Below are positions 1 to 12,725 of a DNA stretch of 12,725 bases, in pieces. The DNA is taken from the IMG/VR virus record IMGVR_UViG_2859827302_000006; one strand, written 5' to 3'. How positions within the stretch are numbered: the first letter of the stretch is position 1; each line of letters starts with the position of its first letter. This stretch comes from a virus (taxonomy: Duplodnaviria; Heunggongvirae; Uroviricota; Caudoviricetes). A program made the translations under genes and the position numbers. The notes beneath the pieces were generated by a model. That model did no database searches, was not told the origin of the DNA, and was given only the letters and a program-made list of their open reading frames with translations.

Positions 1-1461
1 ATGAAAAAATTACTGCGTCTTTTTTTCCCGCTCTCGCTGCGGGTACGTTTTCTGTTGGCAACGGCTGCGGTAGTACTGGTGCTTTCGCTTGCCTACGGAA
101 TGGTCGCGCTGATCGGTTATAGCGTCAGTTTCGATAAAACTACGTTTCGGCTGTTACGTGGCGAGAGCAATCTGTTCTATACCCTTGCGAAGTGGGAAAA
201 CAATAAGTTGCATGTCGAGTTACCCGAAAATATCGACAAGCAAAGCCCCACCATGACGCTAATTTATGATGAGAACGGGCAGCTTTTATGGGCGCAACGT
301 GACGTGCCCTGGCTGATGAAGATGATCCAGCCTGACTGGCTGAAATCGAATGGTTTTCATGAAATTGAAGCGGATGTTAACGATACCAGCCTCTTGCTGA
401 GTGGAGATCATTCGATACAGCAACAGTTGCAGGAAGTGCGGGAAGATGATGACGACGCGGAGATGACCCACTCGGTGGCAGTAAACGTCTACCCGGCAAC
501 ATCGCGGATGCCAAAATTAACCATTGTGGTGGTGGATACCATTCCGGTGGAGCTAAAAAGTTCCTATATGGTCTGGAGCTGGTTTATCTATGTGCTCTCA
601 GCCAATCTGCTGTTAGTGATCCCGCTGCTGTGGGTCGCCGCCTGGTGGAGTTTACGCCCCATCGAAGCCCTGGCAAAAGAAGTCCGCGAACTGGAAGAAC
701 ATAACCGCGAATTGCTCAATCCAGCCACAACGCGAGAACTGACCAGTCTGGTACGAAACCTGAACCGATTGTTAAAAAGTGAACGCGAACGTTACGACAA
801 ATACCGTACGACGCTCACCGACCTGACCCATAGTCTGAAAACGCCACTGGCGGTGCTGCAAAGTACGCTGCGTTCTCTGCGTAGTGAAAAGATGAGCGTC
901 AGTGATGCTGAGCCGGTAATGCTGGAGCAAATCAGCCGCATTTCACAGCAAATTGGCTACTACCTGCATCGTGCCAGTATGCGCGGCGGGACATTGCTCA
1001 GCCGCGAGCTGCATCCGGTCGCCCCACTGCTGGACAATCTCACCTCAGCGCTGAACAAAGTGTATCAACGCAAAGGGGTCAATATCTCTCTCGATATTTC
1101 GCCAGAGATCAGCTTTGTCGGTGAGCAGAACGATTTTGTCGAGGTGATGGGCAACGTGCTGGATAATGCCTGTAAATATTGCCTCGAGTTTGTCGAAATT
1201 TCTGCAAGGCAAACCGACGAGCATCTCTATATTGTGGTCGAGGATGATGGCCCCGGTATTCCATTAAGCAAGCGAGAGGTCATTTTCGACCGTGGTCAAC
1301 GGGTTGATACTTTACGCCCTGGGCAAGGTGTAGGGCTGGCGGTAGCCCGCGAAATCACCGAGCAATATGAGGGTAAAATCGTCGCCGGAGAGAGCATGCT
1401 GGGCGGTGCGCGGATGGAGGTGATTTTTGGTCGCCAGCATTCTGCGCCGAAAGATGAATAA
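1..1461 (+). CDS. phoQ: Sensor histidine kinase PhoQ of the PhoP/PhoQ two-component system, full length (486 aa)
   Basis: Translation is recognised as enterobacterial PhoQ: two N-terminal transmembrane segments, periplasmic acidic patch EDDDDAE, HAMP region, H-box [11 protein letters not shown], and ATPase motifs DNACKY, DDGPGI, GQGVGL; ends in TAA at 1459-1461. Confidence 0.96.
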
Positions 1462-3170: not shown

Positions 3171-3240
3171 AATGTTACCTTAACCGCATGGTTAAATATT
3201 AATCAAGTGGTGGTGGTGTCACCTTCACGGAAAAACGTCA

Positions 3241-3300
3241 TAAATAGCGAAAACCCGCGAGGTCGCCGCCCCGTAACGGGTCCATATGCCGGAAAGGACC
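3241..3300 (-). other. Lambda-type cos site (cos-2) with cosQ-like flank, oriented toward the Nu1-like gene
   Basis: Minus-strand reading GGTCCTTTCCGG...CCCGTTACGGGGCGGCGACCTCGCGGGTTTTCGCTATTTATGA matches lambda cosQ/cosN/left-end sequence; cohesive-end 12-mer is the complement of 3260-3271. Confidence 0.8.
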
Positions 3301-3302
3301 CG

Positions 3303-3328
3303 TAAAAAAAGCCGGATTTCTCCGGCCT
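3303..3328 (-). terminator. Rho-independent terminator ending the capsid operon
   Basis: Minus-strand GCCGGA-GAAA-TCCGGC followed by T7, immediately after the stop of the 137-aa gene. Confidence 0.75.
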
Positions 3329-3332
3329 TGTC

Positions 3333-3746
3333 TCAGATGGTTTTCAGTATGCGCTCGATGTCGCCATCATCGCCCGGGTTTCTGCCGTCGTATGCCATGC
3401 CAGCTGAAACGGCTTGCGGGCTGTGCATGTCCATAAAGTTTTCAAAGGCTGCGGTAAGCTCCGGCGCAACCTTCTGGCGTTCCTGCTCTATGGTCATGCT
3501 AAGGATGCTTTTAGCCGTACCAACATCGATACAAGGCACGTTTGCCATTGCACGTAACAGCGGCTGATAGTCGTTATGCTCATGAAGCGCCATAATCGCA
3601 TCAGCGCGCGGCTTGTCCTGCTCTTCCAGTTTGTTGAGTTGATATACGGCCTCGTAGGTTGATAAACCTCTGTCAGCCATTGCCCGCGCTTCGGCTTTAA
3701 ATTTACTCGCCAGCGGTAGCGTCATGATGCTTTCATTCGTTGCCAT
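3333..3746 (-). CDS. Hypothetical protein (137 aa), last gene of the capsid operon
   Basis: ATG at 3746 with GGGGGA ribosome-binding site 4 nt upstream; 12 nt downstream of the D-like gene stop; protein-like composition; no recognisable motif. Confidence 0.65.
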   Translation of the reverse strand: MATNESIMTLPLASKFKAEARAMADRGLSTYEAVYQLNKLEEQDKPRADAIMALHEHNDYQPLLRAMANVPCIDVGTAKSILSMTIEQERQKVAPELTAAFENFMDMHSPQAVSAGMAYDGRNPGDDGDIERILKTI

Positions 3747-3758
3747 CGTTCCCCCTGC

Positions 3759-4094
3759 TTATCGGGCCAGCGGCTGAACGGATACGCCAGAACCCGCAAA
3801 GGCGGCGCATTTTTTCGCATCGGTGTCGACGCTCTCGGGCCAGTTCACGGCGGCGATATTAAAGATCCCCGTCTTGTAGCACTGTGCTGATTTCTGCTTT
3901 GACGTGTCCACGGGGTACGAAGTCAGATAAACAGCCTTTCCGGACGCCTGACCATCCCACGGCTTAAACTCGCCATTGTCCGCCAGCATCAGCGGGGTAA
4001 ATTCCTGAATGACGCCAGCATCAGCGGCAAAATGTACCAGCGTCGTGGATACCTGCTGACTGCCTGCAAATAACTCAATGTATGGAGTGTTCAT
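3759..4094 (-). CDS. Head decoration protein homolog (lambda gpD-like), 111 aa
   Basis: Size matches gpD (110 aa); C-terminal YKTGIFNIAAVNWPESVDTDAKKCAAFAGSGVSV parallels gpD [35 protein letters not shown]; ATG at 4094 with GGGGGA ribosome-binding site. Confidence 0.7.
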   Translation of the reverse strand: MNTPYIELFAGSQQVSTTLVHFAADAGVIQEFTPLMLADNGEFKPWDGQASGKAVYLTSYPVDTSKQKSAQCYKTGIFNIAAVNWPESVDTDAKKCAAFAGSGVSVQPLAR

Positions 4095-4105
4095 AGAATC
4101 CCCCG

Positions 4106-5161
4106 TTAACCAATTTTGACGGTAACAAATTTGCGAATGTCTGCCGGCACCGGCTGCGGTGCGCTGTGCGTCTGCACGTACTCAATCGCCGGATCGCCGT
4201 CCTCAATCCAGTTTTTCGGGTAGTACATGTTTTGCGTTGCGCCCGTTCTTACCGCTTCCTGATCCATAATCGCACCATAAGCAACCAGCCCTTTATTGTT
4301 GGTGTTGCCCAAGACCAGCAAATCAGGCTCAAGGAAATGTTTTTCGGTGCCGTCGCTGTCGGCGTATTTGCCGGAATAGACGATAAGGGCAATATCGCCC
4401 AGATAGCCTTTAAAGCTCACCACTTCGCCCAGGTTTTTACAGGCCAGTTCTGCGGCGGATTCTGAACCACGGGAAAGATCGTACAGTTCGCGGAATTTTT
4501 TAAAGCTGCGTAACGTGCGCCATACCTCAGCGCCCATAATCATGACGTTTGCGGGGCAATTGCCCTGATCCGCATAAAGCTCGATATCATAGATTGGATC
4601 GTGGGTTTCTTTGTCCTGCTCGGACCATTTACGGCCTTTGGCCTGCTCTATGATGTTGTTTTCCGGCATCTTCCAGTCGATTTCATAGCGTTCTATGCCT
4701 TCGCCCTCAATGATGTTTTTTCCGGTCGTTACCGCATTTACCGCCAGCCATTCAACACGCGCTTTAATAGCGTTTACCTGGCGGCGCATGTTGCCAGTAA
4801 TCAGGCGCATACGGCGATAGGTTGGGTCGTTAAGCTGTGCCGGATCTTCTCCAGCCATGCGCATGATGGTTTTTGTTGGATCGATTTCGTGCTTTGGCTT
4901 CATGTAGCCAGGTTTAATCGTGCTGGTTTCGTACCCTTTATCGCGCTGTACCTGGCTACCAACCATAGGCGAGCAAAACGCTGACATAGTGACTTCTTCG
5001 GTGTCCAGGTTATCCAGCATGATGTTTTGGGTGTTGAATGTCGCTACTTTCGGGAAAAACAGCGTGGTAAACAGCGGACTAAATTTAAATTCCGCAATAT
5101 CCCCGCGATTCAGGTACGCAAAAAGCTGGTGAGTGTTAAGTGCCGTTGCTTTGCCTGCCAT
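4106..5161 (-). CDS. Major capsid protein homolog (lambda gpE family), 351 aa
   Basis: Collinear motif matches to lambda gpE along the length: KPGYMKPKHEIDP, RRMRLITGNMRR, SFKGYLGDIALIVYSGKY, FLEPDLLVLGNTNNKGL, YPKNWIEDGDPA; ATG at 5161 with GGGGGTG ribosome-binding site. All + strand ORFs inside it are antisense. Confidence 0.9.
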   Translation of the reverse strand: MAGKATALNTHQLFAYLNRGDIAEFKFSPLFTTLFFPKVATFNTQNIMLDNLDTEEVTMSAFCSPMVGSQVQRDKGYETSTIKPGYMKPKHEIDPTKTIMRMAGEDPAQLNDPTYRRMRLITGNMRRQVNAIKARVEWLAVNAVTTGKNIIEGEGIERYEIDWKMPENNIIEQAKGRKWSEQDKETHDPIYDIELYADQGNCPANVMIMGAEVWRTLRSFKKFRELYDLSRGSESAAELACKNLGEVVSFKGYLGDIALIVYSGKYADSDGTEKHFLEPDLLVLGNTNNKGLVAYGAIMDQEAVRTGATQNMYYPKNWIEDGDPAIEYVQTHSAPQPVPADIRKFVTVKIG

Positions 5162-5367
5162 TATTCACCCCCATAATTTTTATGCATCCCAAGCGCCGCA
5201 AGTAAATAAGAGCGTACAAGTGAACCTATCGACGGCTCCGGCGTCATCAGCGGATCCAGTCCAGCCGCCACGCCAGCCTCATAGTTTTTTTTGTGGCGCT
5301 GCTTGAGCACCTCCACGATTTCGGGGCTTATGTACACCGAAACACCGCCTTTTTTCTCTTCAGCCAT
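5161..5367 (-). CDS. Hypothetical small protein (68 aa), first gene of the capsid operon
   Basis: ATG at 5367 with GAGGAA ribosome-binding site; its stop overlaps the capsid gene start (TAATG). Confidence 0.55.
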   Translation of the reverse strand: MAEEKKGGVSVYISPEIVEVLKQRHKKNYEAGVAAGLDPLMTPEPSIGSLVRSYLLAALGMHKNYGGE

Positions 5368-5402
5368 AGTAAGAAATTCCTCTTCGACTTAAAAAATCAT
5401 AA

Positions 5403-5452
5403 CTGGATGTTCATCCAGCTCTGATTATAATCATGATTGCATTTTGTGCAAT
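5403..5452 (-). promoter_or_regulatory. Putative capsid-operon promoter (TTGCAC-16 nt-TATAAT, minus strand) with a perfect 16-bp palindrome just downstream
   Basis: The -10 TATAAT is the complement of 5424-5429 and the -35 TTGCAC is the complement of 5446-5451; CTGGATGTTCATCCAG at 5403-5418 is perfectly palindromic. Confidence 0.4.
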
Positions 5453-5528
5453 GATATTGAGTTGTGTTGCAAATTATGAAATGATTATCCCGATCATGTG
5501 TGTCAGTGCACCAAAAAGCCTCATATGC

Positions 5529-5570
5529 AAAAGCCCGATAAGCCACCTCTGACCTTATCGGGCTTTTTTA
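5529..5570 (+). terminator. Strong hairpin plus T-tract, an intrinsic terminator for + strand transcription
   Basis: GCCCGATAAG-11 nt loop-CTTATCGGGC (10-bp perfect stem, 5533-5563) followed by TTTTTT; only AAAA precedes it, so it is weaker on the minus strand. Confidence 0.5.
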
Positions 5571-5694
5571 TCTGCCTGCAAAGATGTCGAACAAAAATTA
5601 ACCATAACCATCATCTTTTTTGCATCAAAACAATTAAAAACAATAAATTACGCTCATGATGATGATGACGATAAAATCACAAAAATGCGCTTTT

Positions 5695-5743
5695 TTCCGC
5701 GCCTCCCGCCCCGTGTTCAGGCCCACCCCGCCAGGAGGCCCCG
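5695..5743 (-). other. Degenerate cos-like sequence (cos-3) next to a copy of the cos-2 terminator
   Basis: Minus-strand ACGGGGCCTCCTGGCGG...ACGGGGCGGGAGGCGCGG aligns to cos-2 ACGGGTCCTTTCCGGCA...ACGGGGCGGCGACCTCGCGG, but the cohesive-end core is disrupted. Confidence 0.45.
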
Positions 5744-5767
5744 TAAAAAAGCCGGATTGCTCCGGCT
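5744..5767 (-). terminator. Rho-independent terminator ending the replication operon after the SSB gene
   Basis: Minus-strand GCCGGA-GCAA-TCCGGC followed by T6, 16 nt after the SSB stop; near-identical to the terminator at 3303-3328. Confidence 0.7.
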
Positions 5768-5782
5768 TCTGTCACTCGTCGC

Positions 5783-6205
5783 TTAAAACGGTATGTTATC
5801 CCCGTACGGATCATCATTCCCCGCCTGTTGTTTTGCCCTGTTCAGCGCGTCAGTAGCCTGGCCCTGTTGACCTTTTTTGCCGCCCAGTCGCGCCGTTCGC
5901 GCACTGATTACACTGTCTGCGATAACCTGCCAGCCCTGCCGCGTTTCTCCGTTCTGCCCAGTCCACTGGCTGATCTGCATGTTACCCGCCACGCTCAGGA
6001 GTTCACCCTTGCGGTGCCTTTCCAGTGCTTCGGCCTGTCTGCCAAATGCCAGGACGGATAACCACATCGTCGCCGTTCCGTCATCTGCCTGGCTGCACGG
6101 AAGGGGGACCGCCATACGTGCCAGCGTCATTGGTGTGCCCTTGCTGGTCTGTTTTACCTGCGGGTCGTCCACCAGCCGCCCGTAAGCTGCTATCTGTGCT
6201 GTCAT
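5783..6205 (-). CDS. ssb: Single-stranded DNA-binding protein homolog (140 aa)
   Basis: OB-fold-like N-terminal region, Gly/Gln-rich linker and acidic C-terminal tail ending DDPYGDNIPF (compare E. coli SSB DDDIPF); strong ribosome-binding site GGAGAGGTGG; ATGA overlap with the upstream gene. Confidence 0.8.
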   Translation of the reverse strand: MTAQIAAYGRLVDDPQVKQTSKGTPMTLARMAVPLPCSQADDGTATMWLSVLAFGRQAEALERHRKGELLSVAGNMQISQWTGQNGETRQGWQVIADSVISARTARLGGKKGQQGQATDALNRAKQQAGNDDPYGDNIPF

Positions 6206-6483
6206 GATTCCACCTCTCCGGTTTTAACGTTGATGGTTGTTACCTGTTCCGCTTCGGCAATCTCCCGTTCTGTCAGCGTGGCAAAGTTTGCCGCCGCCGT
6301 GGTCATGAATGCGCTTATCAGGTCGGGATGTTCCTTCGCGTATCCTTCCCGCGTGTGGCGGTCTATCGTTCTGATTGCCACCTTTAAGGTGTGCTCAGTC
6401 ATGTCTAACGCTTTATATTTTGGCTCTGTTCTGTCTCTGCGTTTTTGGGTCATTTCTCGCAACCTCTCACTTTTTCGCCTCAC
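6202..6483 (-). CDS. Hypothetical small protein; true start probably the internal ATG at 6453 (about 83 aa)
   Basis: Stop overlaps the SSB start (ATGA); the ORF 5-prime end overlaps the iterons, and the in-frame ATG at 6453 has a GAGAGG ribosome-binding site. Confidence 0.5.
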   Translation of the reverse strand: MRRKSERLREMTQKRRDRTEPKYKALDMTEHTLKVAIRTIDRHTREGYAKEHPDLISAFMTTAAANFATLTEREIAEAEQVTTINVKTGEVES

Positions 6484-6657
6484 TTTTTCAAGCGTCTCAC
6501 TTCGTCGCAGTTGGGATTTTCGGTTTTTCTATGTGTGTGTTTCATAAGTATTTTTTTACCCCTCACTTTTGAGGATGTATACAGGTCGAAAAGTGAGGGA
6601 GAGCGGGCTAATTTTGGCCCTCTTTCTATCCCCCTCGCTTTTGCTCCTCACTTTTAT
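6463..6657. repeat. Iteron array, putative replication origin: seven copies of CTCACTTTT (two variants, one inverted) around an AT-rich spacer
   Basis: Copies at 6465-6475, 6478-6488, 6495-6504 (variant), 6561-6570, 6589-6599 (inverted), 6634-6642 (variant) and 6646-6655; AT-rich stretch 6510-6560; lies directly 3-prime of the Rep ATPase gene. Confidence 0.6.
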
Positions 6658-8054
6658 AGCGGCGCTACATCATCCCCATCGATACGAATAACCCCATCTT
6701 TTTCCAGCTTGTACAGCCAGCGCCGGAAGTTTTTCATTTCATACCCCAGCTTTTTCATGTCATCACGTAACAGCGGGATCGTGCACTTGTCGCCGTTCTG
6801 TGTGCGTGAACGGATGCACCCCCATAGCGCGGTATGGTTTTCCGTCTTGTTCCCTGCCTCCTCGATGCGCTCCAGTTCAACAGGAGGGCGCGGATCATCC
6901 ACCACCACCAGCGACGTGATTAATTCACCGTCAGCGTCGGTAAAAAGCTCCACCACGCGTAAGTCATATGCGGCTTCTTTGAGTTCCTCCGCGTCCTTCA
7001 TTTTGGTGCATGAGATAACCAGCGCTTCGCTTCCTGCGTCCTCCCTGCGTATCCGGTATTCAGCATCCAGCGAAGCACGAAATGCACTGGAACCGCGCGC
7101 GCCTTTCGTCTCATCCTTGCCGGAATGGTGAACCACCAGCACCGTGGCCCCTGTGCGTCGTTTCAGTTCGTCACAACCACGGATAAACGCCCCCATATCA
7201 CGGGAATCATTTTCATCATTCCCACCAAAGCAACGCGCCAGCGTATCCAGAATAATCATGCGTACAGGTTTACCCGTTTCCCGCTCCACCTGACGGGCAG
7301 CGATAACCATTTCATCAACATCAAGCGGGGCAGCCGGAAAGATGGGGCGGTTTACCAGATACAGATTTTTCACCTGCTCATCGTGCACAACCTCCCAGGC
7401 TTTTACACGACGCGGAACACCTATACCGCCTTCACCAACCACATAGAGAACCGCACCATGTGCAACCCTGCGGCCTCCCCACTGGCGACCAGTGGCAACA
7501 TGGCACGCCCACGATCCGGCAAGGAATGATTTATAGGACCCGCTAGCTCCGTATATGCTGCATAGCGATACCGCCGGAATAATCCCCTTAACCACGTAAT
7601 CCAGTTGCGTGTCGTATCCGGTAGATCCAACGCTCATCGGTAGCGTGGTTTTTCGCTGGTGGTTTTTTTCTTCCGCCGGCTCTTTCCCGCGCACCCGTTC
7701 CAGGTATTCGCGCCAGTTCTCCCGCATATGGCTGTGCATCCCTTCGGGGTAATAATTCGCATCAGTTACACCCGCCGCCGCCAGCTTGTGCGCAATGGCA
7801 TTAATATTTGATGGCCTGATGTGGCCTGCCTTGTACAGCCGGACACAATAGCGCCCCTCGTCGATGATTCTCAGGTCTGCCAGTTCATCCAGTTGATCAT
7901 CAGCCAGCACAACGGGAGGCACATTATCGCCAGCCAGTCGCCCGTCCTGTTCCTGCCACTGTTTCGCATGTGCCCAGGCATCACTACCCGCAAAAATAAT
8001 GACTTCGGTCATCTTGTCGTAAGGCTGTTTTTTTAAGTTCGGTGCGCTTTTCAT
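6654..8054 (-). CDS. RepA-like RecA-fold (AAA_25-type) replication ATPase, putative initiator-helicase (466 aa)
   Basis: Walker A GASGSYKS, Walker B-like MIILDTLARCFGG, motif VLVVHHSGKD and a basic C-terminal region; ATG at 8054 with AGGGG ribosome-binding site and ATGA overlap with the upstream gene. The N-terminal 150 aa have no recognisable primase motifs. Confidence 0.85.
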   Translation of the reverse strand: MKSAPNLKKQPYDKMTEVIIFAGSDAWAHAKQWQEQDGRLAGDNVPPVVLADDQLDELADLRIIDEGRYCVRLYKAGHIRPSNINAIAHKLAAAGVTDANYYPEGMHSHMRENWREYLERVRGKEPAEEKNHQRKTTLPMSVGSTGYDTQLDYVVKGIIPAVSLCSIYGASGSYKSFLAGSWACHVATGRQWGGRRVAHGAVLYVVGEGGIGVPRRVKAWEVVHDEQVKNLYLVNRPIFPAAPLDVDEMVIAARQVERETGKPVRMIILDTLARCFGGNDENDSRDMGAFIRGCDELKRRTGATVLVVHHSGKDETKGARGSSAFRASLDAEYRIRREDAGSEALVISCTKMKDAEELKEAAYDLRVVELFTDADGELITSLVVVDDPRPPVELERIEEAGNKTENHTALWGCIRSRTQNGDKCTIPLLRDDMKKLGYEMKNFRRWLYKLEKDGVIRIDGDDVAPL

Positions 8055-9386: not shown

Positions 9387-9606
9387 GTACCCCTCCGCAT
9401 TTTTTTTCGTTAGAAATAAGCGTTCTTCTTTCCTGTTCATCGCTCAGGAATACGCAGACCTCACCGCTAAGGCGTTTAAGTAAGCCGATGATTGCCCCTG
9501 ATTCGCTGTCGGTCATCATGCTAGGGTAATCCTCTGCCAGTGCGCAAATAACTTCGATTTGGTGGGCGCGTTCTGCTGCCTGTTGTAGTGTGATTTCCTG
9601 GCTCAT
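9376..9606 (-). CDS. Hypothetical small protein (76 aa)
   Basis: ATG at 9606 overlaps the preceding stop (ATGA); GGGGG upstream. Confidence 0.5.
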   Translation of the reverse strand: MSQEITLQQAAERAHQIEVICALAEDYPSMMTDSESGAIIGLLKRLSGEVCVFLSDEQERRTLISNEKKCGGVHVQ

Positions 9607-9803
9607 AAGCCTACCCCCTGACGAATACGGGCAGCAAATACCATCACGCAGCCAGCCGGAGATTGCTGGCGTGCTTCCTGTTCGCTGGTGGCCTCAATGG
9701 TAATCACGCGCGGTTGTGCCGTGCTCAGGGCGATAAAACGCCAGATGTATTTATTCAGGTTGTGCGAGTCCCGCCCTTTCGGGTGTGTGGTATGATTTCT
9801 CAT
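9603..9803 (-). CDS. Hypothetical small protein (66 aa), first gene of the main leftward operon; it is the C-terminal part of the 428-codon stop-free frame
   Basis: In-frame ATG at 9803 with GAGG ribosome-binding site, about 90 nt downstream of the predicted minus-strand promoter. Confidence 0.4.
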   Translation of the reverse strand: MRNHTTHPKGRDSHNLNKYIWRFIALSTAQPRVITIEATSEQEARQQSPAGCVMVFAARIRQGVGL

Positions 9804-9900
9804 AGCTACCTCGATACTGTTGCTATCGTTGGTGGTTAGAAGCCCCGTTACTGCTCCTACAGTGCGGGGTTTCGTCGTTTCTGTGCCTTTCATCAATAAG

Positions 9901-9981
9901 GTGTAAGACACAATGTAAAACAATGGTGTCTTACACGTCAACCCTTCAAAATATTTTTTTTTCGTGTATATTGTCTTACAC
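9901..9981. promoter_or_regulatory. Divergent promoter/operator switch between the RHH gene (+) and the main operon (-)
   Basis: Inverted repeat GTGTAAGACAC (9901-9911) / GTGTCTTACAC (9926-9936) plus half-site GTCTTACAC (9973-9981); + promoter TTCAAA (9945-9950)-16 nt-TATATT (9967-9972); minus promoter TTGACG (complement of 9936-9941)-17 nt-TTACAT (complement of 9913-9918). Confidence 0.55.
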
Positions 9982-10002
9982 CAAAAACATGAGGGGTTAA
10001 AC

Positions 10003-10182
10003 ATGGCAACGGGTCCAAAGAATGCAAAATCACAATCTGTAACTGCACGTATTGCCCATGAAATTATTGAAGGCATGGAGAACGTGAAAGAAGAAGGCGA
10101 AAGCACGGGACAGTTTATAAACGCAGCCATGCGCGGCGAAATCAAACGCCGCCAGCGCCGCAAGGCCAAAGAGCAGGAGTAA
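10003..10182 (+). CDS. Ribbon-helix-helix (CopG/Arc/MetJ-like) DNA-binding protein, about 59 aa; candidate repressor of the switch
   Basis: ATG at 10003 with GAGGGG ribosome-binding site; the pattern SVTARIAHEIIEGMENVKEEGESTGQFINAAMRGEIKRR fits a beta-strand plus two helices; the ORF-track start at 9964 (GTG) lies inside the promoter. Confidence 0.7.
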   Translation: MATGPKNAKSQSVTARIAHEIIEGMENVKEEGESTGQFINAAMRGEIKRRQRRKAKEQE

Positions 10183-10224
10183 CCATCACCAGCGCCGTGG
10201 TGTGAGTAACTACGGCGCATTGCT

Positions 10225-10413
10225 ATGCAGGACAACACAATGACCGATAAAGAATTGACCAAAACATTATCACCGGCACGGAAAAGACGGCGCAGAAAGA
10301 TAGAGCATGAATCAGAAAGATTCGCGCCATGTGCTTTTGCCCTTGAGCAATTCCTTAAAGAGTACAGGGAAAAGCGCTCATTGCAGGTATGGCAACGAAC
10401 TGAACCAGACTGA
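10225..10413 (+). CDS. Possible small Arg/Lys-rich protein co-transcribed with the RHH gene (likely start ATG 10240)
   Basis: Weak AGGA ribosome-binding site; basic stretch ARKRRRRK; followed by a + strand terminator. Could instead be untranslated. Confidence 0.35.
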   Translation: MQDNTMTDKELTKTLSPARKRRRRKIEHESERFAPCAFALEQFLKEYREKRSLQVWQRTEPD

Positions 10414-10490
10414 TTGCATTGCCCACCAGCCGCAAATGTGGCATTATTGGCAATGCTCATGCGTTGGGGATAACGTGTAGCTTGTGTCGA

Positions 10491-10520
10491 GGGGCCACCG
10501 TAGCGGGTGGCCTTTGTTTT
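10491..10520 (+). terminator. Rho-independent terminator of the RHH transcription unit
   Basis: GGCCACC-GTAGCG-GGTGGCC (10493-10512) followed by TTTGTTTT; a second weaker hairpin plus T-run lies at about 10613-10646. Confidence 0.6.
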
Positions 10521-10526
10521 GCCCGT

Positions 10527-10889
10527 TATTCGGCAATTGTGGCGCTTCTCCACATGGTTGATATAATCCCACTGCTCAGATTCATTTTTTGCGCAGTAGG
10601 TTAATTGTTCACAAAGGCGCTCCGGCAACGGGGCGCTTTTTGTTTTTATTAGTTTGTAGAAACCTGACTCAGAGATAATGCTCATATTCTGATTGCCGTC
10701 AGGGGTGTAAGTTAAATTTACTCCCTTTTTATCATCAAACATCTGCAACGCTCTGGCGTTAACAATATTGGTTTCACTCCCGCCAGTAAGGCCGGAAATA
10801 ACCGGAATAATTTCGGCAAAATTTTGCAGATTCTGTTTTTCAGGACGAACGAAGCCCCGCCCTTGTTCGGGAGAATATCCAGTATTCAT
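10527..10889 (-). pseudogene. Possible decayed gene with a Bro-N-like antirepressor N-terminus; the frame runs on without a stop to 9603
   Basis: The first 95 or so codons look protein-like and include ISESGFYKLIKTKSAPLPE, reminiscent of the Bro-N motif; downstream the frame is antisense to the RHH operon and rich in C/S/R; weak ribosome-binding site. Confidence 0.3.
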
Positions 10890-11164: not shown

Positions 11165-11215
11165 GGTGGATTATTGGGTTGGGTTGTGTCGGATTGTGTC
11201 AGGGTGTTTGTGGAA
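11165..11215. repeat. Repeated TTGTGTC / GGGTTG elements upstream of alpA
   Basis: GGGTTGGGTTGTGTCGGATTGTGTCAGGGTGTTTGTGG, with GTTGTGTC at 11183-11190 and ATTGTGTC at 11193-11200. Confidence 0.4.
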
Positions 11216-11404: not shown

Positions 11405-11470
11405 TTTTAACCCGTTGTTCCATTTTGTTCCTTGTTGTTCGTCGTTGTGTCTCGTTGTTTCACGTTGTCC
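11405..11470. repeat. Six tandem 10-bp-phased GTTGT repeats between the int stop and alpA
   Basis: cccGTTGTTc / cattTTGTTc / cttGTTGTTc / gtcGTTGTGt / ctcGTTGTTt / cacGTTGTCc at 11411-11470, one per helical turn. Confidence 0.5.
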
Positions 11471-11495: not shown

Positions 11496-12725
11496 TTATA
11501 TTTCTCTGGCTATTGGCAATGTGGTTACGTTTTCATGTGTTCCCGCCAGTATCCCTAACCGCTCCGTCCACATATCCAGCGCGTCACGTTTCGCATCCAG
11601 ATAACGGGAATGGTTATAGACTCGTTGCATCCCTGGCATCTGATGACCTGTAAGCTGCTCCACGACGTGAGGATCCACGCCTAAATCGTTCAGCATCGTT
11701 GTAAAGGTGCGCCGGATGTCATGCAGTGACCAGTGAGGGTGTTTTAGCCTCCTGTGCGCTAATCTGCCGTACTGCGACACGCTTGTTTCCTGTTTCACTT
11801 CCCCCAGCAATAAGCCCGTGTGCCTGTTCTGCTCCACCAGCTGCGTGACGAACGGCAGTATTGCTTCCGGTATGGGCCGGAATATTGCCACCTTCGTTTT
11901 GCTGTGTTCTTTCGGCACGGTCCAGAGCATTTCGGTAAAATCCCACTCGCTGATCTCCGATAACCTCAGTTCTACCGTCCGGCATCCGAAAACAATCAGG
12001 AGGCGGATTAGTGCGACGTAGTAAGGGGAAAATATTTTTTTGTCCAGTGCCTGCAATAATTCGCCAAGTTCTTTGGTGCTTAAGACACGCTCGCTTATAT
12101 CCGGTTTTTTCCCAACGTCCGCCACACTCATATCATCAAGAACGTTGCTGATTGCATAGCGCCGCCTCCGGCAGAACTTAAGCGCCTGTTTGCACGTCTG
12201 TAGCAAGAATCCGGCAGTAACAGGCGTTCGCTTTGCCACCTGGTCAAAACAGGCCAGCCAGTGCCGTAGCTCGCATTTATCCAGCGGCATAGCACCAATG
12301 TGCTGTATTACGTGATTATTAAGGCGCTTTTTCAGGGCGGCATAATCCACGCGGTTTTCCTTTACGTAAGACTCAAGCCAGTAGGTAAGCGCATCGCCAA
12401 CCGTTACGGGCTTTAACGCTTTCTGTACGGTGTAATTCATCTCATGACGTGGATTTTTCCCCTCAGCAAGCCAAGCGCGACACTGTGCCGCTTTTTCCCT
12501 GGCAGCTTTCAGACTCAGATCAGGATAATTTCCCAGCTTAATCCGTTCCGGTCGTGCTCCCCTTCCCGTTCCGGCCCTGTAGGTGAAATACCAGGTTAAA
12601 AGGCCGCTGGTTGAATGCCTGACGCTCAGGTTTCCACCGTCATTAAGAAAGGCTGTTTTTTGGGCGGGTGTGCCGTTGATTTTCCTTAGCTGTGTATCAC
12701 TCAGTTTGTTAAGTGCTCTGCGCAT
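11496..12725 (-). CDS. int: Tyrosine site-specific integrase, P4-type (409 aa); start codon at the window edge
   Basis: N-terminal arm-binding region with the LNDGGNLSV motif (compare P4 Int LADGGGLYL); C-terminal catalytic signature with R in GCRTVELR, HxxR in LHDIRRTF and the Tyr region GHQMPGMQRVYNHSRYL. Confidence 0.92.
   Translation of the reverse strand: MRRALNKLSDTQLRKINGTPAQKTAFLNDGGNLSVRHSTSGLLTWYFTYRAGTGRGARPERIKLGNYPDLSLKAAREKAAQCRAWLAEGKNPRHEMNYTVQKALKPVTVGDALTYWLESYVKENRVDYAALKKRLNNHVIQHIGAMPLDKCELRHWLACFDQVAKRTPVTAGFLLQTCKQALKFCRRRRYAISNVLDDMSVADVGKKPDISERVLSTKELGELLQALDKKIFSPYYVALIRLLIVFGCRTVELRLSEISEWDFTEMLWTVPKEHSKTKVAIFRPIPEAILPFVTQLVEQNRHTGLLLGEVKQETSVSQYGRLAHRRLKHPHWSLHDIRRTFTTMLNDLGVDPHVVEQLTGHQMPGMQRVYNHSRYLDAKRDALDMWTERLGILAGTHENVTTLPIAREI

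Follow-up and report, generated by a model that had tools for sequence, protein, structure and literature searches.

The window analysed here, a stretch of 12,725 nucleotides (nt) from IMG/VR virus record IMGVR_UViG_2859827302_000006 (Caudoviricetes), opens with phoQ (1-1461, plus strand) and continues into an island whose genes lie nearly all on the minus strand. By its sequence, the island is an E. coli phage parasite of the EcCICFT073 family of phage-inducible chromosomal islands (PICIs), located between phoQ and roxA. Our subject is the stretch between the SSB gene (5783-6205, minus strand), the last gene of the replication module, and the four-gene capsid operon (3333-5367, minus strand), where a terminator-like hairpin is followed by a cos-like unit. 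A preliminary description had noted a terminator hairpin with a cos-like stretch after the SSB gene and again after the capsid operon (3241-3328), and reading both modules confirmed this; it had further suggested that the upstream copy might be an inactivated duplicate of the downstream one. The upstream copy is better assigned to a second phage cos family, here called cosII, related to the cos region of VT1-Sakai/Stx-type phages.

In the minus-strand reading used for all module sequences, the upstream module (5767-5690) is GCCGGAGCAATCCGGC-T6-ACGGGGCCTCCTGGCGGGGTGGGCCTGAACACGGGGCGGGAGGCGCGG. It begins with an intrinsic-terminator-like hairpin, GCCGGAGCAATCCGGC, and a run of six T residues (5745-5766; hairpin 5751-5766, T6 5745-5750) that fold at -19.8 kcal/mol (z -3.3). 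The cosQ-equivalent heptamer GGGGCCT follows at 5736-5742, as identified by alignment to lambda and type-II phage cos. The lambda cosQ heptamer, GGGTCCT, lies about 20-30 bp upstream of cosN and is needed for termination, not for initiation. The heptamer of the window is correctly positioned for a lambdoid cos and carries a single mismatch, T-to-G at 5739, lambda and all phage copies having GGGTCCT. A variant cosN, ACGGGGCGGGAGGCGCGG, occupies 5697-5714, where phage copies read ACGGGGCGGGC(G)GGCGCGG; its left half, ACGGGGCGG, is common to lambda, and the whole aligns with the cosN of phages whose large terminase (TerL) has GpA_ATPase and GpA_nuclease domains. The remaining part, 5580-5696, is a cosB of the type designated flavour a below, with inverted CATCATC / GATGATG / CATCTTT repeats around an AT-rich spacer, all R-like repeats being intact; the unit ends at TTCGACATCTTT (5580). 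This cosB, about 115 nt long, lies outside the interval covered by the preliminary description.

The downstream module (3326-3250), GCCGGAGAAATCCGGC-T7-ACGGGTCCTTTCCGGCATATGGACCCGTTACGGGGCGGCGACCTCGCGG, starts with the second terminator hairpin, GCCGGAGAAATCCGGC, and seven T residues (3304-3326, minus strand; repeat D4; -19.1 kcal/mol, z -3.0). The lambda-type cos behind it (3171-3303, minus strand) matches lambda through cosN and about 20 nt past it, except for the spacer between cosQ and cosN. As had been proposed, this copy is an intact cos, its cosQ (GGGTCCT, 3295-3301) and cosN (GGGCGGCGACCT, 3260-3271) being identical to those of lambda; its cosB (3171-3250), which adjoins rpp, is of a non-lambda type. 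From the hairpin through the first 40 or so nt after cosN, the module equals that of EcCICFT073 save for one base beside cosQ and the T-run. A third cos, also lambda-type, lies at 2470-2541 on the plus strand, inverted relative to the other two (repeat I1, 72 nt, 86% complementary to 3231-3302). The two full lambda-type sites face each other across rpp and match the published cos1/cos2 pair of EcCICFT073.

The preliminary description put the identity of the two modules at about 70%, close to the gapped global identity of 64% (58/90) over its two intervals and of 68% (57/84) from hairpin to cosN. In the repeat search of the window, only the hairpin and T-run scored as a repeat between modules (5745-5766 against 3305-3326; D4, 22 nt, 95%). 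Beyond the hairpin, where GCCGGAGCAATCCGGC-T6-ACGGGGCCTCC...ACACGGGGCGGGAGGCGCGG (5767 to 5697) stands against GCCGGAGAAATCCGGC-T7-ACGGGTCCTTTCC...TTACGGGGCGGCGACCTCGCGG, the outcome depended on the test. Unanchored local alignment returned just the 9-mer ACGGGGCGG, which was non-significant (226-424 of 2000 dinucleotide shuffles reached its score). When global alignment was instead anchored where the T-run ends, z was 2.9-4.0, with 0-21 of 3000 dinucleotide shuffles, mostly 0-3, scoring as well. Because the anchored alignment is significant, we regard the collinear similarity of the modules as exceeding chance; the claim that it extends outside the hairpin thus stands in the anchored comparison and not in the unanchored one.

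Between the upstream unit and the capsid operon lies a second, stronger hairpin (AAAAAAGCCCGATAAGG...CTTATCGGGCTTTT, 5522-5574, minus strand; repeat I19; -25.6 kcal/mol, z -4.0) that starts the capsid-operon leader. The leader proper, a putative promoter region (5368-5521, minus strand) with paired TTGCA motifs, is 91-100% conserved in islands with or without the cos block and contains a weak sigma-70-like match in a consensus scan. The paired motifs, TTGCA(A/T)NTT(A/G)TG(C/A)AATGAT, lie 30 nt apart at 5437-5488 and are candidate late-activator binding sites. Counts in the sigma-70/terminator consensus scan were at background level and the scan missed the hairpins, which were therefore judged by folding. 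Rfam returned no RNA family match anywhere in the window. A coding function of the block was rejected on account of 1-nt G-run indels among conserved phage copies (13 vs 13). Such indels would frameshift the 'hypothetical protein' open reading frames (ORFs) annotated over the cosII region in three records (L004, 3932-4135; L005, 3934-4206; mEp460, 44129-44377), which are thus unlikely to be genes.

Relationship of the upstream unit to phage cos regions

A search of E. coli genomes with 5370-5800 returned, besides full-length matches, matches that spanned only the T-run to about 5580, at 87-88% identity and in different surroundings. The block 5580-5744 proved to be 87-90% identical over about 169-190 nt to the intergenic region between Rz and the small-terminase gene terS in O157 prophages, VT1-Sakai and Stx2 phages. 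In O157:H7 ATCC 43890, Rz stands on one side of the match and a DUF1441 protein on the other, the large terminase and portal genes coming after the latter; VT1-Sakai and several Stx2-converting phages show the same placement, with 87-90% identity across about 170 nt. The order Rz, block, DUF1441 terS, terL, portal recurs in the O157 prophage L005, in VT1-Sakai and in dozens of IMG/VR loci. The TerL of these phages belongs to the gpA family (gpA ATPase and nuclease), and the DUF1441 protein occupies the position of the small terminase (TerS).

The phage cosII region is collinear with lambda cos through GATAA(C/T)CATTATCA..TTT(G/A)CGGGTCCT...ACGGGGCGG, phage cosII reading ...GATAACCATTATCATTTTGCGGGTCCTCC...ACACGGGGCGGGCGG(G)CGCGG... 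and lambda GATAATCATTATCACTTTACGGGTCCTTTCC...TTACGGGGCGGCGACCTCGCGG. Over the cos stretch, the two families are 62% identical to each other; with cosQ and the left half of cosN the same, sequence comparison indicates that they share ancestry. Judged in the same way, the upstream copy of the window is a member of cosII, comprising a cosQ, a variant cosN and the phage's own cosB. It is not a decayed lambda-type duplicate, because its 64% identity to the island's lambda-type cos equals the approximately 62% between the phage families, while its identity to cosII phages is 87-90%. The label 'degenerate', or decayed, was accordingly largely wrong, with a kernel of truth in the changes in cosQ and cosN of the window.

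An exact-match scan of IMG/VR for CCTGAACACGGGGCGGG identified 92 loci, which were mapped with a protein panel and resolved into three contexts. The phages have the order Rz, cosII, DUF1441 TerS, TerL and, further on, a protease/major capsid protein (MCP) fusion. Islands like that of the window have SSB, hairpin, cosII, p68, gpE, gpD, Nu3-like, hairpin, lambda cos, Rpp or Nu1-like, inverted lambda cos and p93. Islands with a ClpP-protease/MCP fusion gene have SSB or PerC, in some cases hairpin and cosII, then the fusion gene, a different hairpin, cosII and p93. The ends of the cosII unit are identical in all three contexts, from TTTT(A/G)CGGGTCC to TTCGACATCTTT, with complete divergence beyond. 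Scanning species-representative genomes for the 17-mer CCTGAACACGGGGCGGG gave chance matches only, in GC-rich unrelated taxa, and no enterobacterial locus. The genome ends of mEp460, whose record begins at the terS ATG, revealed no cohesive end, and no end-mapping or transduction data for cosII were found in the literature searched (cos type, Stx-phage cos, PICI-Stx packaging, core sequence).

Several islands of this family adjoin or lie inside the terminase region of cosII-type prophages (L011, L017, L033, L060, L086, L096, L098; also L037, L068, L091), for example with p93 followed by a 99% identical TerL within about 0.4 kb, or with the island placed after the DUF1441 terS. The arrangement fits the helper-embedded PICI configuration (PMC10111431), and as read from these loci it shows that such islands are physically associated with cosII phages.

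Downstream of cosN, cosII units fall into two flavours, each made of inverted repeats around an AT-rich spacer: flavour a, ...ATCGTCATCATCATCATG...AAAGATGATG...CATCTTT, and flavour b, ...ATGGCACCATCACCACCAGTG...CATCACTGGTG. Across 57 phage loci, flavour a occurred solely with a TerS whose identity to the L005 reference was 95% or more, and flavour b solely with a class at 70-80%. The two classes of DUF1441 TerS differ solely in the N-terminal 90 or so residues, the C-terminal 68 amino acids (aa) being identical. We read this co-variation, at the level of sequence, as marking a genuine cosB/TerS specificity pair. The pattern resembles that of lambda and phage 21, where cosB pairs with the N-terminal domain of the small terminase as the packaging specificity: cosQ and cosN are common, cosB co-varies with the TerS N-terminus, and the TerL-contacting C-terminus is constant. 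Unlike those two, cosII phages have a DUF1441 TerS instead of Nu1, and a variant cosN. DUF1441 small terminases have barely been studied, and flavours a and b offer a clean natural collection of their cosB/TerS specificity pairs. The Rpp-associated cosB of the window (3171-3250, minus strand; GGTGACACCACCACCACTTG) resembles the flavour-b cosB of DUF1441-TerS phages (GGCACCATCACCACCAGTG; L012 and similar), and the cosB of the O26 island has a complementary GGTGGTGGTGG motif; a recognition theme common to Rpp and DUF1441 TerS may underlie these likenesses.

Distribution of hairpins, capsid cassettes and cosII units

Both hairpins stand with a U-run at the end of an operon and fold at z of about -3, so that termination is predicted. 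They conform to the consensus GCCGGAG(A/C)AATCCGGC-T6-7, with a 6-bp GC-rich stem and a 4-nt loop, of which there are two copies in the window, two in EcCICFT073 and three in the O26 island. Across islands, the preceding gene is SSB, PerC, a hypothetical gene or the Nu3-like gene. No cos follows the hairpin after PerC and after the hypothetical gene in the O26:H11 island, or after PerC in EcCICFT073; because the same element lacks a cos in these contexts, it is not cos-specific. Protease-MCP islands have a different hairpin (GGCGGCACCAGCCGCC-T6) before their distal cos. The hairpin closes a gene block in every case, and on this comparison it is best read as the generic module-boundary terminator of the island family, behind which cos units are docked. 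Cassettes found between hairpin copies include alternative capsid cassettes and small accessory ones (PerC, the hypothetical gene, cosII).

The proposal that the capsid module is an exchangeable cassette was borne out in part: the slot between the terminators holds either the lambda-type p68-gpE-gpD-Nu3-like operon or the ClpP-protease/MCP fusion gene. The cos-like repeat is not the boundary of this cassette, however, because EcCICFT073 and the O26:H11 island retain the module order and the hairpin without the cos-like part, an outcome that the preliminary description had itself named as counting against its reading. In EcCICFT073, the first hairpin is followed after 6 nt by the second hairpin, so that the block is missing cleanly, as an indel of about 190 nt after the T-run.

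About 597 of the 5,426 complete E. coli genomes carry this capsid operon, 168 of them with the junction SSB-hairpin-cosII-leader. All 17 window-type islands have flavour a upstream and a lambda-type cos downstream, and all eight islands with two cosII units have flavour b upstream and flavour a downstream. The two sites on one island are therefore always of different, complementary specificity as far as their sequences tell, which looks selected and not accidental. In many protease-MCP islands, a flavour-a unit was the sole cos in the exact-motif searches used, and for this reason the unit presumably works in an island context. Among window-type islands, hairpin, cosII and leader are 97-100% identical, while identity falls to 87% at the 3' end of SSB, 78% in p68 and 88% in the capsid gene; over the genes flanking this conserved non-coding stretch, the range is 78-93%. 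The heptamer GGGTCCT is invariant in the 28 phage and 22 distal island copies (50/50).

Proposed role and alternative readings

Our preferred reading, to which we assign a probability of roughly 60%, is that the upstream unit is a heterotypic second cos by which helpers of the VT1-Sakai/Stx type would package the island directly. In a cell where a VT1-Sakai-class helper (TerS class 1) is replicating, the TerS of that helper would bind the flavour-a cosB of the island directly, after which the helper TerL would cut at the island cosN and island concatemers would be packaged via cosII without Rpp. Helpers of the lambda/phi80 type would instead use the lambda-type cos, whose cosB is Rpp-specific. 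The island would in this way be 'bilingual' for two helper terminases, and two kinds of helper phage can probably package it. What was observed directly is the homology, the unit boundaries, the cosB/TerS co-variation and the distribution; that the copy of the window is cut and used is what we infer. In a tentative extension that we regard as possible, EcCICFT073-family islands may be 'multilingual', carrying exchangeable cos cassettes of about 170-190 nt (cosQ to the end of cosB) behind a reused hairpin, with different terminase specificities (lambda-type via Rpp; flavour a or b via DUF1441 TerS), and be mobilised by Stx-converting, related lambdoid and lambda/phi80-like phages; recurrent cosQ mutations at the internal site might then tune which site terminates packaging.

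A number of observations weigh against a functional second cos. About 70% of the islands with this capsid operon lack the block, and its high conservation could stem from recent recombinational spread and not from selection. Among SSB-proximal copies, cosQ is intact in 12 of 16 and mutated in the other four by two different changes; the hypergeometric chance of 4/16 against 0/50, calculated by hand, is about 0.0025, yet just two mutational events are involved. This pattern fits relaxed or altered constraint at the proximal position. A C-to-A change in cosN gives A in 16/16 SSB-proximal copies (one with a further change) and in none of the 28 phage or 22 distal copies. Together with the T-to-G change in cosQ of the window, it may weaken termination or cutting. 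The internal site may thus be losing, or be selected to lose, the ability to terminate packaging. The number of G residues that separate ACGGGGCGGG from CGCGG differs between copies by one to a few, and because of this variable spacing the cut sites are not readable from the sequence. Deletion of both lambda-type cos sites of EcCICFT073 abolished transfer by lambda/phi80 (PMC6092414); this result is uninformative on the cosII block, because EcCICFT073 lacks it.

The cosQ and cosN changes bear on the possibility that the block is a non-functional hitch-hiker, a relic of module shuffling between protease-MCP and lambda-capsid islands that is carried with the SSB-terminator segment and slowly decays. 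The left part, SSB-terminator-cosII, is indeed common to both island families and carries private substitutions, among them the cosN C-to-A change, and cosQ mutations are confined to proximal copies while most such islands do without the block. We nevertheless consider a relic, the main rival of the preferred reading, rather unlikely. Its boundaries are exactly those of a cos unit, its identity is kept at 97-100% next to diverging genes, the R-like repeats of the window cosB are all intact, and the proximal flavour, a in lambda-capsid islands and b in protease-MCP islands, is always complementary to the distal site. Alternatively, the site could act as a decoy, the pseudo-cos titration suggested in the preliminary description, binding and possibly nicking with helper terminase without productive packaging of the island, so that helper yield is lowered. 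The native, phage-type cosB makes TerS binding plausible, the cosQ defect of the window could make the site poor at termination, and interference with helper packaging is an established trait of PICIs (PMC6739421). A single site per unit of about 11 kb would be a weak sink, however, cosQ is intact in most proximal copies, and packaging-productive binding would benefit the island more, so that a decoy appears improbable.

Very little room is left for the reading originally given, in which the island's own lambda-type cos was duplicated when the capsid cassette was inserted and the copy has since decayed to about 70% identity. The collinear similarity to 3241-3328 beyond chance, the direct orientation and the position of the copies on either side of the capsid operon speak for it. 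Against it stand the higher identity, over 170-190 nt, to a different and widespread phage cos family, including a cosB without counterpart at 3171-3250; the value of 62-68%, which is that of the divergence between two phage cos families; and the islands that have the same capsid cassette and lack the copy. It is comparably hard to credit that the block is purely regulatory, as part of the terminator/promoter region of the capsid operon, with its cos likeness irrelevant to packaging. It does lie between two terminator-like hairpins and upstream of the capsid-operon leader, but the same leader and operon occur in EcCICFT073 and the O26 island, where the block is absent, the consensus scan found no convincing promoter within it, and the same block occurs upstream of terS in phages and at the far end of other islands, behind the last capsid gene.

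PICIs spread virulence and defence genes, and the range of phages that mobilise them decides their reach. EcCICFT073 presumably relies on lambda-type cos sites that are read by way of Rpp. If cosII works, such islands would also be mobilisable by Shiga-toxin-type lambdoid phages, and helper range would be set by small swappable cos cassettes and not by proteins alone; if the site is a relic, it reflects ordinary mosaicism.

Island setting and comparison with known systems

The gene order of the island begins with the integrase (11496-12725) and then a small helix-turn-helix (HTH) gene, followed by the replication module with a RepA-type helicase (6654-8054) and the SSB gene, behind which the terminator stands (Pfam SSB, E=4.9e-15; also annotated in RefSeq for the near-identical island L001). 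The capsid operon (minus strand) comprises p68 (5161-5367), a gpE-like major capsid protein (4106-5161; Pfam Phage_cap_E, 4e-50), a gpD-like decoration protein (3759-4094; Pfam HDPD, 6e-18) and a Nu3/scaffold-like protein of 137 aa (3333-3746; PHROG 1999/53). It is followed by a homologue of Rpp (redirecting phage packaging; 2730-3170, minus strand), a TerS-like protein of 146 aa whose N-terminal HTH resembles that of TerS, and by the 93-aa gene p93 (2155-2436). The island thus has, in the gene order of EcCICFT073, the components of an EcCICFT073-type PICI: an integrase, a small HTH regulator in the AlpA position (placed by position, not by family), a replication module, Rpp, a lambda-type cos and one att site. 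The Rpp homologue shares 99% identity with the protein that occupies the Rpp position in EcCICFT073, and DNA identity to EcCICFT073 is 96.5% in the block containing the integrase and 94% from the capsid operon through rpp. The replication modules of the two islands differ by a swap, a RepA helicase in the window standing in place of the primase of EcCICFT073.

Three further features of the island were recorded. The region 6444-6655, which adjoins the RepA helicase gene on its downstream side and extends over the start of the small ORF that comes next (p83), contains the motif TTTT(N)C(N)CCTCACTTTT three to four times at 83-85 nt spacing (families D6, D14) and a palindrome (6560-6599); by their arrangement the repeats look like replication-origin iterons. 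A 428-aa ORF (9603-10889, minus strand) has Ant/BRO-like matches at its N-terminus and is Icd/repressor-like at its C-terminus (PHROG 6196); for this stretch, the annotation of the closest RefSeq islands has several small genes on both strands, and the ORF is either a fusion or an ORF-calling artefact. Near the integrase end, GTTGTGTC-type repeats occur at 11173-11207 and 11444-11468, with inverted matches at 1582-1612, just beyond phoQ (88% over 24 nt). These may be integrase arm sites or att-flanking sites that mark the ends of the island.

The closest known system is EcCICFT073 itself, the model Gram-negative PICI (Fillol-Salom et al. 2018, PMC6092414; 2019, PMC6739421), which shares with the window the family, the phoQ-roxA site, Rpp, the capsid operon, the cos adjacent to rpp, the inverted second cos and the principle that island cos sites serve for packaging by a helper terminase. 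EcCICFT073 encodes a capsid homologue (c1499) and a decoration homologue (c1500) and has two lambda-type cos sites, cos1 and cos2, both functional by experiment, one of which is read by an Rpp-TerS complex (PMC6092414, PMC6739421). The difference is that EcCICFT073 has just these two lambda-type sites, with a non-phage cosB that needs Rpp-TerS, whereas cosII of the window is a third cos, of another phage class, with the phage's own cosB and placed upstream of the capsid operon.

That PICIs and Staphylococcus aureus pathogenicity islands (SaPIs) carry helper cos sites is known. Going by the passages of PMC6092414 that deal with cos-type SaPIs (SaPIbov5; SaPIbov4, with two putative cos sites), these satellites copy the helper cos including its recognition part, the helper terminase packages them directly, and islands with more than a single cos have been noted; the host is Gram-positive and the sequences are unrelated. 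The literature searched contained no description of two cos sites of different specificity on one SaPI. Nor does that literature describe the presence on one island of small cos cassettes of different terminase specificity behind a reused terminator. The Gram-negative, helper-embedded PICI 11capE offers a further parallel, its 258-bp cos region being 90% identical to that of its helper 50icd; there, the shared region stands at the usual cos position at the island end and is the sole cos described (PMC10111431), whereas the phage-like cos of the window is an extra, internal site of another type than the main cos of the island.

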